From Bacteroidaceae bacterium (GTDB lineage Bacteria; Bacteroidota; Bacteroidia; Bacteroidales; Bacteroidaceae): a stretch of DNA of 64,000 nucleotides. The stretch is from the NCBI GenBank assembly GCA_045535555.1, contig JAZSLV010000003.1, positions 2,117 through 66,116 on the forward strand, given 5' to 3'. The stretch's first letter is position 1, and every line of letters starts with the position of its first letter. The position numbers and the translations under genes were made by a program. The notes under the pieces were generated by a model. That model did not search any database. It saw nothing but the letters and a program-made list of their open reading frames with translations, and had not been told where the DNA came from. Below, one piece after another: positions 42,601 through 63,025 of this stretch.

Positions 42601-43998
42601 ATGATAGGGACTGAACTAAAAAACCAATGGAGCTTATGTCTGGATTTCATCCGGGACAACGTGTCGAAAGCAGTTTTCGATACGTGGTTTACGGTTGTAG
42701 AGCCGGAGTCATTGGAAAACGGTGAACTCGTACTGCAGATCCCAAGCCCGTTCGTATTCGAGTATCTGGAGCAGAACTGCCTGGACGTTATAAAGGCGGC
42801 TCTGACCAAGGTTTTCGGCAAGGGCACCAAACTATCATACAGCATACTTACAGATAAGGAGAACAACATCAGCCAGAACGTCAGTTCGGCAGATACCTTA
42901 TATAATATAAAGGGTACTGCAGAGATAGGAAACAAGGCCCCGTCCGTAAACGATGCTCCGTATGTTCAGGATCTCAATCCCCAGTTGGACCCCAACTACA
43001 GTTTTGAGAATTTCGTAGAGGGAATAAGTAACAAACTTGCTCGCACAGCCGGTGAGACCATAGCCTTGAATCCGGCAGGAAGCGCATTCAACCCCCTGTT
43101 CATATATGGTTCATCCGGCGTGGGCAAAACTCACCTGGCAACAGCCATAGGCCGTAAGGTAAAGGAACTCCACCCCGAAAAAAGAGTCCTTTACGTATCA
43201 GCCCACCTCTTCATGGTACAATATACTGATGCGGCCAGAAACAACACTGTCAATGATTTCATCCATTTCTATCAGTCCATAGACGTGCTGATCATTGATG
43301 ACATGCAGGAACTGTCAGGTTACACCAAGACACAGAACACATTTTTCCATATATTCAACTATCTGCACCTTAACCACAAGCAGCTTATCATGACGAGTGA
43401 CCGTCCGCCCAAGGACATGAAAGACCTTGAGGAGCGTCTGATCACCCGCTTCAAATGGGGCTTGGTGGCTGAGTTGGAGCGTCCGGACCTTAACCTGCGC
43501 AAAGACATACTACGCGACAAGACCAGACGTGACGGTATCAGGTTCCCGGAGCCGGTTATTGATTACATAGCCGACAAGGTAAGGGATAATGTTCGTGATC
43601 TGGAGGGTGTGATTGTCTCACTGATGGCATATTCAACAATTTACGGCAAGGACGTAGACCTGAATCTTACCCATGAGGTGATAGACAAGAGCCAGCATCA
43701 TGAGCAGAAACCAATCACGATTGAATCCATTATCTCAAAGGTCTGTGACTATTATAACATCGACGAGACATCCGTACAATCCAAATCACGCAAGCATGAG
43801 ATTGTTCAGGCAAGACAGATAAGTATGTATCTGGCCAAGAAATACCTGGATTTCTCCACTTCAAAGATTGGAGCGTACATAGGAAAGCGCGATCACGCCA
43901 CAGTTCTCCACGCCTGCAATATGGTCCGTGACCAGATTCAGGTAGACAAGAATTTCAAGGCCGATATGGAAAATATCGAGAGTGGTTTGCGCTGCTGA
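42601..43998 (+). CDS. dnaA: Chromosomal replication initiator protein DnaA
   Basis: GSSGVGKTHL Walker A, IDDMQEL Walker B, and C-terminal DNA-binding domain ...GKRDHATVLHACN. Confidence 0.95.
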   Translation: MIGTELKNQWSLCLDFIRDNVSKAVFDTWFTVVEPESLENGELVLQIPSPFVFEYLEQNCLDVIKAALTKVFGKGTKLSYSILTDKENNISQNVSSADTLYNIKGTAEIGNKAPSVNDAPYVQDLNPQLDPNYSFENFVEGISNKLARTAGETIALNPAGSAFNPLFIYGSSGVGKTHLATAIGRKVKELHPEKRVLYVSAHLFMVQYTDAARNNTVNDFIHFYQSIDVLIIDDMQELSGYTKTQNTFFHIFNYLHLNHKQLIMTSDRPPKDMKDLEERLITRFKWGLVAELERPDLNLRKDILRDKTRRDGIRFPEPVIDYIADKVRDNVRDLEGVIVSLMAYSTIYGKDVDLNLTHEVIDKSQHHEQKPITIESIISKVCDYYNIDETSVQSKSRKHEIVQARQISMYLAKKYLDFSTSKIGAYIGKRDHATVLHACNMVRDQIQVDKNFKADMENIESGLRC

Positions 43999-58120: not shown

Positions 58121-59458
58121 ATGAAAATAGTAATTGCGGGAGCCGGAAACGTAGGTATCCATCTGGCCAAACTTCTGGCCGGAGAGAATCAGGATATAGT
58201 TCTCATAGACGAGAGTCCCGAGAAACTGGCCCGACTGGATTCAAGTTTTGACCTGCTTACCATTCAGGAATCACCTGTATCGCTTCACGGACTCAAGGAG
58301 GCCGGTGCAGGAAGTGCAGACCTCTTTGTAGCCGTCACTACCGATGAGAGCCGAAACATCATCGCCGCGCAGCTGGCCCATTATCTGGGAGCTAAGAAAA
58401 CCGTAGCACGAATCAACAACTACGAGTATCTCCAGCCCAAGAACATGGAGTATTTCAACAGCATCGGACTGGATTCACTCATCTACCCCGAGCTTCTGGC
58501 TGCAAGGGATATTGTAGACGGAATGAAACTCAGTTGGATACGTCAGTGGTGGGAATTTGCCGGAGGTGCCCTGGTCATGATGGGTATCAAACTGCGTGAA
58601 AACGCCCAGATACTCAACAAACCGCTCTCTGAACTCGGCAAGGAACTTCCCTATCACATAGTCGCCATACTACGTGAAGGAGTTACCATCATACCGAGCG
58701 GTAGCGATACCATGCAGGCCGGTGATCTGGTATACTTCATGACAATGAAAAAACACATCCCGCACATCCGCCGCATTGCCGGCAAGGAGGAACTGCCCGA
58801 CGTGCGTGATGTAATCATAATGGGCGGCAGCCGCATAGCCGTACGCACGGCACAACTTATGCCCGACTATATGAATCTCAAGATCATTGAGAGTGACCTG
58901 GAACGCTGCAACCGTCTCACCGAATTGGTTGATGACAAGGTTATGATAATAAACGGTGACGGCCGCGACCCCAGTCTGCTCATGAGCGAAGGCATTCAGC
59001 ATACCGAGGCATTCGTCGCTCTGACCGATAATTCCGAGACCAACATCCTGGCCTGCCTGGCAGCCAAGCGTTTCGGAGTGACCAAGACCATAGCCGAGGT
59101 TGAGAACATAGACTACATCAACATGGCTGAGAAACTTGATATAGGCACGGTAATCAACAAGAAGAAGATTGCCGCCAGCCACATATACCAGATGATGCTC
59201 GATGCCGATGTAACCAACGTCAAGTGTCTCACCTTTGCCAACGCCGATGTAGCCGAGTTCAACGTCATTGAGGGAGCCAAGATAACCCGCAGTCAGGTCA
59301 AGGACATATCCCTGCCTCGCGGAGTGACCATAGGCGGACTTATCCGTAACAGGGAGGCTCTGATAGTAACCGGCAACACTCAGATACTGCCCGGAGACCA
59401 CGTGGTTGTATTCTGCCTGGAAGGAATGATTAAGACCATAGAGAAGTATTTCAATTGA
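58121..59458 (+). CDS. trkA: Trk potassium-uptake system NAD-binding subunit
   Basis: Two RCK_N/RCK_C repeats and N-terminal IAGAGNVG. Confidence 0.9.
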   Translation: MKIVIAGAGNVGIHLAKLLAGENQDIVLIDESPEKLARLDSSFDLLTIQESPVSLHGLKEAGAGSADLFVAVTTDESRNIIAAQLAHYLGAKKTVARINNYEYLQPKNMEYFNSIGLDSLIYPELLAARDIVDGMKLSWIRQWWEFAGGALVMMGIKLRENAQILNKPLSELGKELPYHIVAILREGVTIIPSGSDTMQAGDLVYFMTMKKHIPHIRRIAGKEELPDVRDVIIMGGSRIAVRTAQLMPDYMNLKIIESDLERCNRLTELVDDKVMIINGDGRDPSLLMSEGIQHTEAFVALTDNSETNILACLAAKRFGVTKTIAEVENIDYINMAEKLDIGTVINKKKIAASHIYQMMLDADVTNVKCLTFANADVAEFNVIEGAKITRSQVKDISLPRGVTIGGLIRNREALIVTGNTQILPGDHVVVFCLEGMIKTIEKYFN

Positions 59459-60918
59459 TAAACATTAAGATCATACATAGGATACTGGGAGTCCTGCTTC
59501 TGATAGAATCAGGAATACTGCTGCTCTGCGCACTTATCCCTGTATTCTACGGTGAGGATGACCTGTTCGGGTTCATCATGGCCTCGCTCACATCGGCCTG
59601 CGTAGGTATGACCGCCCTCTACATAGGCAAGAGCACCAAACATAAGGAAGGCGCGATGACCCGCCGCGACGGATATATAGTTGTGGCTCTCAGTTGGGTT
59701 CTGTTCTCGATATTCGGTTCCCTGCCCTATCTCATCAGCGGTTATTTACCTTCATTCACCGATGCCTATTTTGAGACCATGTCCGGCTTCACAACCACAG
59801 GAGCCACCATAATACAGGATGTGGAGCTAATACCCCACGGCCTGCTGTTCTGGCGCAGCCTGACACAATGGATAGGCGGTTTGGGTATCGTGTTCTTTAC
59901 GGTAGCGGTACTGCCTATATTCGGTGTAGGTGAGGTCCAGTTGTTCGCAGCCGAGGCCATCGGACCCACTCACAACAAACTCCACCCGCGCATAAGTGTA
60001 AGCGGCCGATGGATCATAACCGTATATATCGTGATAACCATTCTGTGTGCCGTTGCACTGAGGTTCTGCGGCATGGGAGTCTTTGACAGCGTAAACCATG
60101 CACTGACCACGGCAGCCACCGGCGGATTCTCCACCAAGAATGCCAGCATAGCCTACTTCAACTCTCACTCGGTTGAGTATGTAATAACATTCTTCATGTT
60201 CCTGTCAGGCATCAACTACGGTCTGCTGTTCTTTGTGATATTCCGCGGCAAGGTACATAAGCTGATTGAGGATACCCAGTTCAAATGGTACCTTATGTTC
60301 CTGCTCATATTTACCTTTATAGTAGGCCTAAGCCTTTTCATATCAACCCCCTACAACGGCTCATCAGCATTGCGCAACGCCCTCTTCCATGTAACCGCCA
60401 TTATCACTACCACAGGCTTCACATCGACCGATTATACCCAATGGCCGCCGTTCATATGGATGACACTGGGACTATGCATGTATTTCGGTGCCTGCGCAGG
60501 TTCCACCACCGGTGGTATGAAATCAATCCGCATTGCCATCCTGTTAAAGTCCATGCGCAATGAGTTCAACCGCATACTTCACCCCAACGCCATACTTCCG
60601 GTCCGGGTAAACGGCAAGGTCATCCCGCCTTCAACCAGACAGAGTGTGCTTACATTCAGCATATTCTTCTTTGCGTTGGTATTTATAGGATGGTTCTTCT
60701 ACCTGGCCATAGGCATAGACATTGCCGAGGCTTATGGCATCTCACTGTCGTGTCTGAGTAATATCGGTCTTACAATAGGATATCACGGATGCAACATACC
60801 GTGGGACGATATGCCCACCATAGGCAAATGGTTCTCAACCTTTCTGATGCTGATCGGCCGACTGGAGGTTTTCAGTGTCCTGCTGGTTATCACCCCCGCT
60901 TTTTGGAAGCATCGCTAA
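59455..60918 (+). CDS. trkH: Trk/Ktr-type potassium transporter membrane subunit
   Basis: TrkH-family polytopic protein with repeated selectivity-filter-like TTTG/TATGG/TTTG/STTGG segments. A 4-nt overlap links it to trkA. Confidence 0.9.
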   Translation: MINIKIIHRILGVLLLIESGILLLCALIPVFYGEDDLFGFIMASLTSACVGMTALYIGKSTKHKEGAMTRRDGYIVVALSWVLFSIFGSLPYLISGYLPSFTDAYFETMSGFTTTGATIIQDVELIPHGLLFWRSLTQWIGGLGIVFFTVAVLPIFGVGEVQLFAAEAIGPTHNKLHPRISVSGRWIITVYIVITILCAVALRFCGMGVFDSVNHALTTAATGGFSTKNASIAYFNSHSVEYVITFFMFLSGINYGLLFFVIFRGKVHKLIEDTQFKWYLMFLLIFTFIVGLSLFISTPYNGSSALRNALFHVTAIITTTGFTSTDYTQWPPFIWMTLGLCMYFGACAGSTTGGMKSIRIAILLKSMRNEFNRILHPNAILPVRVNGKVIPPSTRQSVLTFSIFFFALVFIGWFFYLAIGIDIAEAYGISLSCLSNIGLTIGYHGCNIPWDDMPTIGKWFSTFLMLIGRLEVFSVLLVITPAFWKHR

Positions 60919-61899
60919 GAACTCCCTTACATCCTCTCTCATACGCTCATACGTCTCACATCCCTTGTAGTGCGTATTCTTGCGGATAGCCTCAGTGAGG
61001 CCCATCTGACTGTGCTGATAAGCACTGATCTCGTTATGATACTGCTGGTTGTGGACAGCGAACCTGCGTATTTCCAACTCACGTTCCTGACGCAGCACCG
61101 TACATACGGGCATAAGCAGTTTGAGTATTACGTTCTCCACCAGATGATGTCCCTGAAGGAACAGATACGTGTTATCCTCCCTGACACCCATTGATGTAAG
61201 TTCCTTTCGCAAGGCGGCCACCTCGGGTATTGCCTCCGGATAATGGTTCTCCATCCAGCGGACCTTATGGCTCACCCTCTCCGATACGCTTATAATTGCA
61301 GCCTGAGGCCGGTGTACATCAACAGACTTGAGTTTTATATCCAGGTTAAGGTCCTGCATGCTGTAACTGTTATGCAGTTTCTTGCGGTAGAACCACACGT
61401 TCCATACAAACAGAGGATATACCGCCTTTGAGTAGAGTTCCATAAAACCCTCAAAATCAATCAGTCTGTGGTCATTCAATGTACACTGCACACAAATCTG
61501 ATGCAAGCTCCCCGACCAGCACTGATAGTTTTCAATGGCATAAGTGTAGGTCTGTATGACAAACGGATTACTTATTATCTCTTTTGATGTCTGTGTTACC
61601 CCCTGAAGCAGCCAGTCATAATCACTGTCCACACAAGCAATCAGGTTGCTGCCCAATCCGTTATGCTCAATACACGAACGCAAGGCCGATTTCTTGCCTT
61701 TAGTCAGACCGCCACGATTGGGCAGCATTATCTGGAAATAGTGATCCGGAGTCTCAAACTCATCCAAAAGCACACGCCAGAAAGAGACATCGTCATAACT
61801 CTCCACGAAAGCCACGATACGGCCTCTGCGCTTGCCCGGCAACAGTCTGTCAGCCGCCTCGAAATAACGGGAAGAAATATTGTCTGTAAGTCTCTTCAT
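60835..61899 (-). CDS. DUF4435 / TOPRIM-like protein (putative nuclease effector, AriB-like)
   Basis: Motif series RIVAFVESYDDVSFW (E33), LIACVDSDYDW (D91/D93), TYAIENY. It lies 13 nt downstream of the ATPase gene. Its last 28 codons overlap the trkH 3' end on the opposite strand. Confidence 0.8.
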   Translation of the reverse strand: MKRLTDNISSRYFEAADRLLPGKRRGRIVAFVESYDDVSFWRVLLDEFETPDHYFQIMLPNRGGLTKGKKSALRSCIEHNGLGSNLIACVDSDYDWLLQGVTQTSKEIISNPFVIQTYTYAIENYQCWSGSLHQICVQCTLNDHRLIDFEGFMELYSKAVYPLFVWNVWFYRKKLHNSYSMQDLNLDIKLKSVDVHRPQAAIISVSERVSHKVRWMENHYPEAIPEVAALRKELTSMGVREDNTYLFLQGHHLVENVILKLLMPVCTVLRQERELEIRRFAVHNQQYHNEISAYQHSQMGLTEAIRKNTHYKGCETYERMREDVREFLAMLPKSGGDNQQDTENLQSADQHQKG

Positions 61900-61912
61900 G
61901 CTCTATTACCCC

Positions 61913-62734
61913 TCACTTGACGGTAATATCCTCAACATCATATACTGAATCCATCCACCCGTCCATAATCAGTGCCGGCGAATGGGTTGTCATGATAATC
62001 TGACAGTTGGGGTTGAGTGAACGGACGCGCTGTATAAGTTGCTGCTGCCACTCTATATGAAGTGAAATCTCCGGCTCGTCCATAAGCAGTACTCCGGGTG
62101 TCTGGTCCTGAACCAGGGTTGTGAGCATTATCACCAGCAGCTGTTTCTCACCAGATGACAGGTTGTAAGGCAGCAGCGTGGCGCCGAACTGGTCAAACAG
62201 AATCTCATTGCTGGTACGGATTATCTTCTTACCCGTATCGGTAAAGAGTTCATCCATGTAATCCATGAACTTTATCTTGGGAGCCGATATCTCCTGCGCC
62301 TCACGTATCTTTTCGGGATCACCCGATGTAAGCAGCTGAATGGTACGGTTGCCTATGTTAACCTGATAATCCAGATAACGGCGCTGCAGTTTGTAGAGTT
62401 GCCAGTCCAGTTCCGATACCACGCTCTTATCGGACATCTTCTCCAACAGATTGCTGTGCATGAGCGGACGGTCTATGCTGCGTATAACATCATACTTGAT
62501 CCTGGTTGACCCTTCGGGGAAATAATCTATCTGTACCTCAGGATTCTCTTCCTGACTCTCTCCGGCCAGGTAATCCAGACGTGCTACAGTCTTATTGAGA
62601 ATGGTACTCTTGCCTGTACCGTTAACACCGCTCAGGATATTCACATCGGGACGCAGGTTCCATACTATGTGCTTTCTGCCCCAAAGTGAGTTGATCTCTA
62701 TGCGGCTTATTCCATCGGCGTATCCATTTTCCAT
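61913..62734 (-). CDS. Short soluble ABC-type (AAA_21/OLD/RecF-like) ATPase, 273 aa
   Basis: Walker A GVNGTGKST (62603-62629), signature LSSGEKQ, Walker B VLLMDEPEISLH, H-loop TTHSP. No TM segments. Confidence 0.8.
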   Translation of the reverse strand: MENGYADGISRIEINSLWGRKHIVWNLRPDVNILSGVNGTGKSTILNKTVARLDYLAGESQEENPEVQIDYFPEGSTRIKYDVIRSIDRPLMHSNLLEKMSDKSVVSELDWQLYKLQRRYLDYQVNIGNRTIQLLTSGDPEKIREAQEISAPKIKFMDYMDELFTDTGKKIIRTSNEILFDQFGATLLPYNLSSGEKQLLVIMLTTLVQDQTPGVLLMDEPEISLHIEWQQQLIQRVRSLNPNCQIIMTTHSPALIMDGWMDSVYDVEDITVK

Positions 62735-62762: not shown

Positions 62763-62770
62763 TAAATATA
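62763..62770 (-). promoter_or_regulatory. Near-consensus -7 box (TATATTTA on minus strand) upstream of the ATPase gene
   Basis: 7/8 match to TAnnTTTG, 29 nt upstream of the ATG at 62734 and immediately downstream of the terminator hairpin. Confidence 0.35.
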
Positions 62771-62771
62771 T

Positions 62772-62813
62772 AAAAAAAGAAGAGTCACCGTAAGGTAACT
62801 CCTCTCTTTTTTT
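62772..62813. terminator. Intrinsic terminator hairpin flanked by an A7 and a T7 run
   Basis: A-run 62772-62778, imperfect stem AGAAGAGTCACC-GTAA-GGTAACTCCTCT, T-run 62807-62813. Confidence 0.65.
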
Positions 62814-63025
62814 GGCGGCGCGTGATTCACATCAAACGATACCCAATGATATTTATAAAAAGGACTATCTATCTACATTAGCAACCTCTTAACGGTCATA
62901 CCGTTTCGTGATTGCGCTACAAAGATATTCTTTATTTTTTATTTTGCATATTATTGAGGGGTATTTAAGTGATTTTTGCAGTTAATAACACTTAAAATGG
63001 CCGAATTAGGCCATAAAATGCATTA

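Follow-up and report, generated by a model that had tools for sequence, protein, structure and literature searches.

Within a 64,000-nucleotide (nt) stretch of a Bacteroidaceae bacterium genome (assembly GCA_045535555.1, contig JAZSLV010000003.1, positions 2,117 to 66,116 of the forward strand; hereafter, the window), two adjacent genes that encode a small ATP-binding cassette (ABC) ATPase and a DUF4435/TOPRIM nuclease were found to belong to a compact PARIS-type (AriA/AriB) family that has already been catalogued, with the twist that the pair is fixed, vertically inherited, and slowly evolving and lacks the canonical sensor bundle. The pair is a long-standing resident of the core genome, not a sporadic abortive-infection cassette, and a defense function is possible. 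We lean, with slightly better than even confidence, toward the interpretation that this compact PARIS-type (OLD "class 4"-like) module, fixed and vertically inherited in the Bacteroidaceae (in the GTDB sense, Prevotella included), acts as an ATPase-gated RNase sentinel of the core genome. The open reading frame (ORF) coordinates confirm what the initial annotation of this DNA had described, two minus-strand genes of 273 and 354 amino acids (aa) lying 13 nt apart, and the spacing of the two genes in relatives (5 to 50 nt, or overlapping) fits a single operon.

61913..62734, minus strand: ariA-like gene, 273-aa compact ABC ATPase of the AAA_21/AAA_15 clade, no transmembrane segments
61900..61912, minus strand: ariA-ariB spacer, 13 nt
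60835..61899, minus strand: ariB-like gene, 354-aa DUF4435/TOPRIM nuclease

The position of the pair was followed in a scan of one genome per species anchored on TrkH, which returned 80 loci in which Dxs, TrkA, TrkH, the AriA-like and AriB-like proteins, and the M20 peptidase were located. The synteny count was made on the 70 species-level loci that extend 4 kb or more downstream, and the pair was scored if it fell within 8 kb; by this measure, 52 of them, in Prevotella-like genomes and in other Bacteroidaceae, carry the pair downstream of dxs-trkA-trkH. These carriers include the closest relatives (rumen and horse-gut Bacteroidaceae metagenome-assembled genomes [MAGs]) and many Prevotella, Segatella, Hoylesella, Hallella, and related genomes, and the site is kept even where TrkH is only 45 to 50% identical to the TrkH of the window.

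Both the AriA-like and the AriB-like gene evolve under strong purifying selection, and their divergence runs parallel to that of dxs, trkA, and trkH. Among the 48 loci in which all five genes are complete, pairwise AriA distances correlate with those of Dxs, TrkA, and TrkH at r = 0.94 to 0.95 and AriB distances do so at r = 0.88 to 0.91, the correlations of the housekeeping proteins with one another being 0.94 to 0.96. After tight clusters were thinned, the values for AriA were r = 0.88 to 0.92, against 0.90 to 0.93 for the housekeeping comparisons (Mantel p = 0.0005). The ratio of AriA to Dxs distances spans 0.93 to 1.41 between its 5th and 95th percentiles, against 0.85 to 1.42 for TrkA to Dxs, with no outliers. 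On average, AriA has diverged as far as TrkA (0.314) and AriB (0.466) somewhat faster than TrkH (0.396). Median ratios of nonsynonymous to synonymous substitution rates (dN/dS) among close relatives are 0.053 for ariA and 0.089 for ariB, with flanking genes at 0.049 to 0.095; dS is about 1.4, near saturation, so that these values are rough, yet comparable between genes.

These observations bear directly on the possibility that the locus is an ordinary horizontally acquired PARIS abortive-infection cassette that came to lie between trkH and the M20 gene by chance, an explanation that we consider improbable. It would account for the domain architecture, for the PADLOC and Pfam calls, for the concentration of PARIS calls among gut MAGs in the Bacteroidales (PMC10924106), and for the slightly lower G+C content (GC) upstream of ariA (0.40 to 0.42, compared with about 0.50), a low-GC stretch that comprises the intergenic region only. 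Such an acquisition is, however, difficult to reconcile with a site shared by genomes whose TrkH proteins are 45 to 50% identical, with distances that track the flanking genes without outliers, with a coding GC of the pair that resembles that of its neighbors, and with the lack of an integrase, transposase, or tRNA border. The initial annotation had inferred an abortive-infection-type module, and a typical sporadic module of this kind is not supported: synteny is conserved, the genes co-diverge with their neighbors, dN/dS is housekeeping-like, and close relatives are missing from the phage and viral sequence sets searched.

The neighborhood of the pair is made up of housekeeping genes, as had been noted from the sequence. 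The flanking genes encode TrkH (PF02386, 1e-65) and an M20 peptidase (PF01546, 3e-22), and the wider window carries dnaA, ribonucleotide reductase, GH94, major facilitator superfamily (MFS) transporters, murF-alr, dxs, trkA, trkH, and M20 genes. In a relative with 78% identity, the neighbors are genes for queuosine synthesis, electron transfer flavoprotein (ETF), acyl-coenzyme A dehydrogenase, MatE, and M20, and in some species genes for RecA, saccharopine dehydrogenase, an ABC transporter, or a BspA-like surface protein lie between trkH and the pair. No integrase, transposase, tRNA border, or defense island was found around the pair. The single exception to the housekeeping surroundings is a Prevotella locus (UMGS1103, L014, 10644-16614) where the interval from a mannose-6-phosphate isomerase gene to ariB has received a gene for a Type ISP restriction-modification enzyme of 1646 aa and one of the RhuM family; among the loci with annotated intervening or neighboring genes, this enzyme is the only known defense gene adjoining the pair. 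At the other end of the pair, the ariB and trkH genes converge.

60835..60918, unstranded: convergent 3'-end overlap of ariB (minus) and trkH (plus), 84 nt

The overlapping sequence codes for part of a disordered, poorly conserved AriB C-terminal tail (predicted local distance difference test score [pLDDT] below 50, residues 335-354). The overlap is similar in relatives, amounting to 74 to 77 nt in loci L001-L010 (tblastn matches) and to 84 nt between the called genes in L083. In the window, dnaA lies at 42601-43998 on the plus strand, about 17 kb from the pair, with ribonucleotide reductase, GH94 phosphorylase, and MFS transporter genes between them, and the locus is therefore probably near the replication origin.

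Searches of mobile-element collections agree with a chromosomal residence. None of 50,697 phage records matched the nuclease, and 2.9 million viral contigs gave one distant match only (26% identity). Two close "plasmid" matches were rejected as evidence of mobility, being chromosome-like fragments from fragmented assemblies. These PLSDB entries, "plasmid 41" and "plasmid 93" of strain TSDC17.2-1.1 (L081, NZ_OY725943.1; L082, OY726067.1), look like mislabeled chromosome fragments: the first (Bacteroides finegoldii) carries genes for MeaB, alpha-2-macroglobulin, MscS, and a TonB receptor, and the second (Phocaeicola massiliensis) is unannotated over the stretch examined and has the arrangement of a divergent EamA gene next to ariA-ariB. 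A clean presence/absence polymorphism between trkH and the M20 gene, which had been suggested as a check on the locus, was sought in the Segatella copri complex, and none was found; two genomes that lack the pair near trkH (L018 and L020) break synteny exactly at the pair. In the complete genome of S. copri G8 (NZ_CP146523.1; L020, 10848-12669), synteny with pair-bearing S. copri genomes is lost about 140 nt short of where ariB would lie, and beyond the breakpoint come genes for an extracytoplasmic function (ECF) sigma factor and a DDE transposase and a cluster of FecR and TonB-receptor genes. Since an insertion sequence transposase and unrelated genes follow the break, L018 and L020 point to rearrangement rather than to an empty site or a clean excision.

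The 273-aa protein is a soluble Rad50/SMC-type ABC ATPase in which the nucleotide-binding motifs are all intact. All of the ATPase and nuclease motifs quoted in the initial annotation are present, and the distance from Walker A to the signature, estimated there at about 150 residues, is 151 when counted from K42 to S193. The ATPase motifs, as read from the ORF translation, are GVNGTGKST, LSSGEKQ, VLLMDEPEISLH, and TTHSP.

62603..62629, minus strand: Walker A (P-loop) GVNGTGKST, residues 36-44; K42 aligned to E. coli AriA K39 (8ux9_B)
62246..62413, minus strand: two-helix hairpin, residues 108-163; predicted helices H108-135 and H140-163 (AlphaFold 2 [AF2])
62141..62161, minus strand: ABC signature LSSGEKQ, residues 192-198; aligned to E. 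coli AriA 366-372
62069..62092, minus strand: Walker B VLLMDEPE, residues 215-222; E220 aligned to the AriA catalytic residue E393
61976..61990, minus strand: H-loop TTHSP, residues 249-253, including H251

The Pfam matches of the ATPase are to AAA_21 (6e-21, 76.2 bits), AAA_15 (1e-16, 61.9 bits), and SMC_N (4e-10), those to AAA_21 and AAA_15 being confined to the C-terminal third of the profiles. In PADLOC-DB v2.0.0, the AriA profile PDLC04164 is matched with an E value of 6.7e-58 over positions 5-251 of its 253. The initial annotation had supposed a "so far unclassified" subtype; the compact form is not unclassified, because PADLOC holds this 253-position AriA profile, which is matched end to end, and because the pair passes the published PARIS Pfam-score rule. 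PADLOC PtuA models also match, down to 6e-25. The best PDB sequence match is E. coli AriA (8UX9, 8V45-49), in an alignment limited to the N-terminal 40 and C-terminal 75 residues of the ATPase, and the best Foldseek matches of the AF2 model (pLDDT, 84.5) are AriA and the PtuA ATPases of Septu and retrons (E about 1e-10). When 1.84 billion cluster representatives were searched with a profile, 626 clusters came up at an E value of 1e-30 or below, many of 270 to 350 aa, and the compact ATPase family is therefore large. No NCBIfam family scored above its cutoff for the ATPase or the nuclease, and an exact-sequence look-up of the window ATPase returned no identical entry on record.

The ABC ATPase might also be the ATPase subunit of an importer or exporter, as suggested by a weak ABC_tran match (1.7e-6; 29 bits, compared with 76 bits for AAA_21), by the JGI name "ABC-type Mn2+/Zn2+ transport system ATPase," and by TrkH, EamA, and MscS nearby. 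The operon, however, holds no permease or binding-protein partner but a TOPRIM nuclease, and the strongest matches of the ATPase are to AAA_21, AAA_15, SMC_N, and AriA, with an inserted hairpin of the Rad50/SMC kind. This assignment is effectively refuted by the domain and structure matches, and the NCBIfam transporter matches are far below their cutoffs.

In the AF2 model, the N- and C-lobes of the ATPase are separated by an inserted helical hairpin, as in Rad50 and SMC proteins, and the hairpin appears from the model to be the sole remnant of the coiled-coil/insertion region that forms the E. coli AriA sensor bundle. Because only 151 residues and one predicted hairpin separate Walker A from the signature, the canonical sensor and hexamerization module is missing or, at most, has a two-chain replacement. 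The AlphaFold models used here are of single chains, and an intermolecular four-helix bundle built from two hairpins is possible, so that the oligomeric state is not fixed by the hairpin. Across the 48 species, 88 of the 273 ATPase residues are invariant; these include all Walker, signature, and H-loop residues (G36, N38, G39, G41, K42, S43, and T44 of Walker A, LSSGEKQ, D219/E220, and H251). The hairpin region ranks among the most conserved parts of the protein, and its first helix is nearly invariant in the same species (D110, Q112, L116-R118, L121-V125, G128, N129, I132, and L135). The trigger-binding pores of AriA, by comparison, are poorly conserved among PARIS homologs (Burman et al.).

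The recognition of the 354-aa protein as DUF4435/TOPRIM-like was borne out by a Pfam DUF4435 match of 1.3e-46 (159.8 bits, profile positions 2-235 of 238), and, like the AAA_15/AAA_21 and DUF4435 profiles, the PADLOC AriA and AriB models match the pair strongly (PDLC02983, 2.3e-57, and PDLC04165, 3.4e-34, for the nuclease). Together with the PDB and Foldseek matches, these results uphold the homology to PARIS AriA/AriB, a split OLD-like class, that had been proposed.

61789..61809, minus strand: TOPRIM motif 1 FVESYDD, with E33, D36, and D37; counterpart of E. coli AriB E26/D30
61615..61635, minus strand: TOPRIM DxD motif CVDSDYD, with D91, D93, and D95; counterpart of E. coli AriB D88/E90
61525..61542, minus strand: YAIENY, with E123; counterpart of E. 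coli AriB E122

Judged from these motifs, the nuclease carries the full predicted two-metal acidic set, E33, D37, D91, D93, and E123. Their matching to E26, D30, D88, E90, and E122, the acidic residues of E. coli AriB (PMC11464382), follows from the order of the motifs and from the DUF4435 profile; it does not come from a direct pairwise alignment. All TOPRIM acidic residues are among the 50 of 354 nuclease residues that are invariant across the 48 species, and since no catalytic residue varies, with dN/dS at about 0.09 over family-level divergence, nuclease activity itself appears to be under selection. The profile scan found DUF4435 only and no TOPRIM_OLD match, and neither the Pfam and NCBIfam scans nor Foldseek returned a match to RNase M5. 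Foldseek was needed to connect the nuclease with E. coli AriB because sequence searches failed, and AriB (8ux9_A; E 2e-3, probability 1.0, template modeling [TM] score 0.41-0.46) was the sole meaningful Foldseek match of its AF2 model (pLDDT, 86.4). The matches that these sequence searches did give in the PDB, to proteins such as GAS7 and YidC, were discarded as coiled-coil noise.

By analogy with E. coli PARIS, ATP-bound head-to-head dimers of the AriA-like protein would dock and silence the monomeric AriB-like nuclease. A signal sensed via the conserved hairpin/head surface, together with ATP hydrolysis, might then free the nuclease, which would dimerize and cut structured RNA, probably tRNA anticodon stems, and so arrest translation. 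In E. coli, the AriB dimer cleaves tRNA(Lys/Thr/Asn) (the mechanism is described in PMC11464382, PMC10802264, and PMC12409363). The trigger may be a cue that is itself conserved, whether a phage factor of that kind or a disturbance in a host process that the system guards; we think of a sentinel rather than an arms-race cassette because the putative sensor surface is invariant, not fast-evolving, and because the genes are non-mobile in this lineage.

Several points weigh against a PARIS-type RNase sentinel. For this pair, the binding of AriA to AriB and its stoichiometry, like the RNA that is cut and any effect on phages, are inferred by analogy. The bundle that binds Ocr and builds the hexamer in E. 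coli is absent, and sensing and assembly may therefore differ fundamentally. The structural match between the nuclease and AriB is weak (TM score 0.41-0.46), and phmmer and a 58-sequence family profile of the nuclease both miss E. coli AriB in the PDB. The pair is lacking near trkH in 18 of the 70 loci, a count that scores the locus only and does not distinguish absence from relocation. Moreover, immune genes are not typically conserved so deeply by vertical descent at housekeeping rates, and this behavior would suit a nonimmune role just as well. The initial annotation had itself set conservation of the pair at this locus, without enrichment in defense islands, against its defense reading; this pattern is largely what we observed.

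It is conceivable, if unlikely, that the pair is a domesticated housekeeping enzyme that has lost an immune role or never had one and takes part in a constitutive or stress-regulated nucleic-acid transaction, for example, stable-RNA maturation or quality control of the kind carried out by RNase M5, a TOPRIM enzyme, or the handling of DNA ends in the manner of RecF/RecR. Synteny and co-divergence with dxs, trkA, and trkH throughout the family, dN/dS values equal to those of housekeeping genes, a "sensor" hairpin that is invariant with no hypervariable surface, and the lack of a phage, plasmid, or defense-island association in this lineage are all in line with such an enzyme. The same holds for how very common it is in Bacteroides and Prevotella data from gut and rumen, where clusters number hundreds to thousands of members, and for an AriB catalytic site that is reported to be structurally closest to RNase M5 (PMC12409363). 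The substrate, however, is purely conjectural, the nearest characterized relatives (PARIS and Septu/retron PtuA) are all anti-phage, related compact pairs sit on small mobilizable plasmids of Proteobacteria, as is typical of defense or addiction cargo, and universality is not demonstrated, given the 18 of 70 loci lacking the pair near trkH. A related scenario, which we hold only tentatively and rate as unlikely, is that a PARIS-type module has been domesticated for a conserved physiological job (stable-RNA processing or surveillance, or translational shutdown under stress) instead of or besides phage defense, or that the locus represents an ancestral housekeeping form behind mobile PARIS. Were domestication true, an immune-type ATPase-nuclease machine would have become part of the core genome in a major family of gut and rumen bacteria.

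Related pairs on small plasmids, and the role of E. coli AriA as antitoxin/chaperone for the toxic AriB (PMC10802264), may also bring to mind a purely selfish toxin-antitoxin addiction module without host benefit. We regard this as very improbable, as the catalytic residues are all invariant, dN/dS is about 0.09, and the locus is chromosomal and non-mobile. Addiction gives a toxin no protection from inactivating mutations.

Directly upstream of ariA, a further element occupies the 291-nt spacer between the M20 gene and ariA, where it is conserved in the genus-level clade of the window. All of its parts lie on the minus strand.

62765..62927, minus strand: candidate small RNA (sRNA) gene or 5' leader with a terminator, immediately upstream of ariA
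62920-62927, minus strand: Bacteroidetes-type -7 box TAtcTTTG
between the -7 box and the core, minus strand: 5' hairpin whose stem covaries (5/6 pairs with double changes)
62812-62869, minus strand: invariant core of about 58 nt, GATAGTCCTTTTTATAAATATCATTGGGTATCGTTTGATGTGAATCACGCGCCGCC
62772-62811, minus strand: 18-bp intrinsic terminator whose apical pairs covary

The ATG of ariA follows 38 nt past the terminator. The core occurs once in the window; it sits at an identical position in all 33 metagenome contigs that bear it, and ariA follows in 31 of the 31 that are long enough. The element is absent from the more distant relatives examined (L007-L009, L083, Prevotella, and Bacteroides). An Rfam scan returned no family; matches to mir-6, BSnc120, and MicX were rejected, being sub-threshold and on the terminator hairpin only. 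The element represents either an independent sRNA gene or a leader with a terminator that gates ariAB transcription, and its membership in the ariAB module is uncertain.

A divergent EamA/DMT transporter gene lies 90 to 190 nt upstream of ariA in 26 loci, and this arrangement is common to Prevotella-like genomes, Bacteroides, and Phocaeicola. Among these 26 loci are those of Bacteroides finegoldii, Phocaeicola massiliensis, and another Bacteroides lineage, with the order MeaB...EamA followed by AriA-AriB-MscS. The Bacteroides ATPase clade is dense, with at least 85% identity between species and clusters of more than 1000 members, and orthologs from Segatella and Bacteroides receive identical PADLOC calls. 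In both lineages the neighbors are ion and solute homeostasis genes (L081, 7138-11364; L119, 6003-10146; window, 58121-60918): trkA-trkH (K+ uptake) in the window and in Prevotella, an MscS-type channel gene directly downstream in Bacteroides, and the EamA/DMT exporter gene divergent upstream in both. These neighbors may be a coincidence or a functional hint.

What is known of PARIS comes from one satellite-borne E. coli system in which Ocr is sensed through a coiled-coil bundle, and our findings add a large and abundant clade (Prevotella, Segatella, Bacteroides, and rumen relatives) without that bundle and with core-gene-like evolution. Among the papers available to our search, none dealt with the compact clade of Bacteroidales, with its lack of a sensor bundle, or with the vertical inheritance of the pair; the published AriA/AriB phylogeny kept only matches with more than 75% coverage and may therefore have left out compact ATPases. 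Surveys of gut MAGs place PARIS calls mainly in Bacteroidales (PMC10924106), and it is plausible that these calls correspond to the conserved locus described here. Censuses of "PARIS" in Bacteroidales may thus count a vertically inherited locus, which would inflate the apparent dynamics of defense repertoires in gut and rumen microbiomes. The presence of orthologs in genetically manipulable Bacteroides makes it tractable to ask whether the pair is fixed as a sentinel or as a housekeeping function and what a minimal AriA senses.

Compared with known systems, the pair satisfies the operational definition of PARIS (Rousset et al. 2022, DefenseFinder, and PADLOC; rule in PMC9122126), adjacent genes scoring at least 32 bits for AAA_15 or at least 27 bits for AAA_21 together with at least 27 bits for DUF4435: it scores 76.2 bits for AAA_21, 61.9 for AAA_15, and 159.8 for DUF4435, with the genes 13 nt apart. 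The profile-coverage filter of DefenseFinder could treat it differently, since its Pfam ATPase matches are limited to the C-terminal third of those profiles. Intact ATPase motifs and the TOPRIM two-metal acidic set, both features of PARIS, are found, and the PARIS four-helix coiled-coil bundle with IS1/IS2 is not, its place being taken in the AF2 model (pLDDT, 84.5) by the single hairpin 108-163. Nor do the Bacteroidaceae loci behave as defense-type accessory genes do (patchy distribution, islands or mobile elements, transfer), L014 being one exception.

The closest characterized counterpart is PARIS of E. coli B185 (8UX9, 8V45-8V49), which has also been proposed as OLD-family "class 4." It has the same gene order, with the ABC ATPase upstream of the DUF4435 nuclease, and the same key residues, K42 corresponding to K39 and E220 to E393, with signature, H-loop, and acidic set kept, whereas its AriB has no detectable sequence similarity to the window nuclease. 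As the initial annotation had suspected, the window ATPase is far shorter (273 aa, compared with 464 aa for E. coli AriA); from Walker A to the signature it has 151 residues instead of about 328, about 177 fewer. In E. coli AriA, the coiled coil makes up a short bundle of four helices that bears the insertions IS1 (122-180) and IS2 (242-289); this bundle forms the CC interface and pores, assembles the hexamer, and binds the trigger Ocr, and AriB docks at the interface between the ATPase heads (PMC11464382, PMC10802264). The E. coli system is borne by P4 satellites and phage hotspots, in contrast to the chromosomally fixed, vertically inherited pair of the Bacteroidaceae.

Nearer in size are the compact PDLC04164/PDLC04165 pairs on 4- to 7-kb ColE1-type or mobilizable plasmids of Klebsiella, E. 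coli, and Acinetobacter (L124, 1879-3826; L125, 1559-3548; L126, 1539-3516), which carry little beyond replication or mobilization genes and the ATPase-DUF4435 pair. The E. coli and Klebsiella pairs, those scanned with PADLOC (the Acinetobacter pair was not scanned), have the same best models as the window pair. The plasmid ATPases are longer (325 to 336 aa, compared with 273 aa), with about 60 extra residues after the first lobe, and are 36% identical to the window ATPase in their C-terminal half; their DUF4435 partners, of about 325 aa, are only about 19 to 23% identical to the window nuclease. These plasmid pairs are mobile cargo, whereas those of the Bacteroidaceae clade lie on the chromosome in conserved synteny and evolve slowly.

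Septu/retron PtuA, Gabija GajA, and P2 Old (OLD classes 1 to 3) belong to the same AAA_15/21 clade, and in them, as here, an ATPase controls a nuclease. They differ in that PtuA pairs with the HNH nuclease PtuB, that GajA and Old fuse the ATPase and TOPRIM domains and act on DNA, and that all are larger (450 to 630 aa). Assignment to the fused classes (P2 Old, GajA, or retron-Eco8 type) was rejected: the window has two separate ORFs and no TOPRIM_OLD domain, and NCBIfam matches to retron Eco8 and PtuA are far below their cutoffs. Finally, the closest structural relative reported for the AriB catalytic center is the TOPRIM two-metal site of RNase M5 (PMC12409363). RNase M5, which matures 5S rRNA, is a small monomer that uses uL18 as a cofactor and works without an ATPase partner, whereas the window nuclease has one; as a housekeeping TOPRIM enzyme, it nevertheless offers a parallel to the evolutionary behavior of the window pair.

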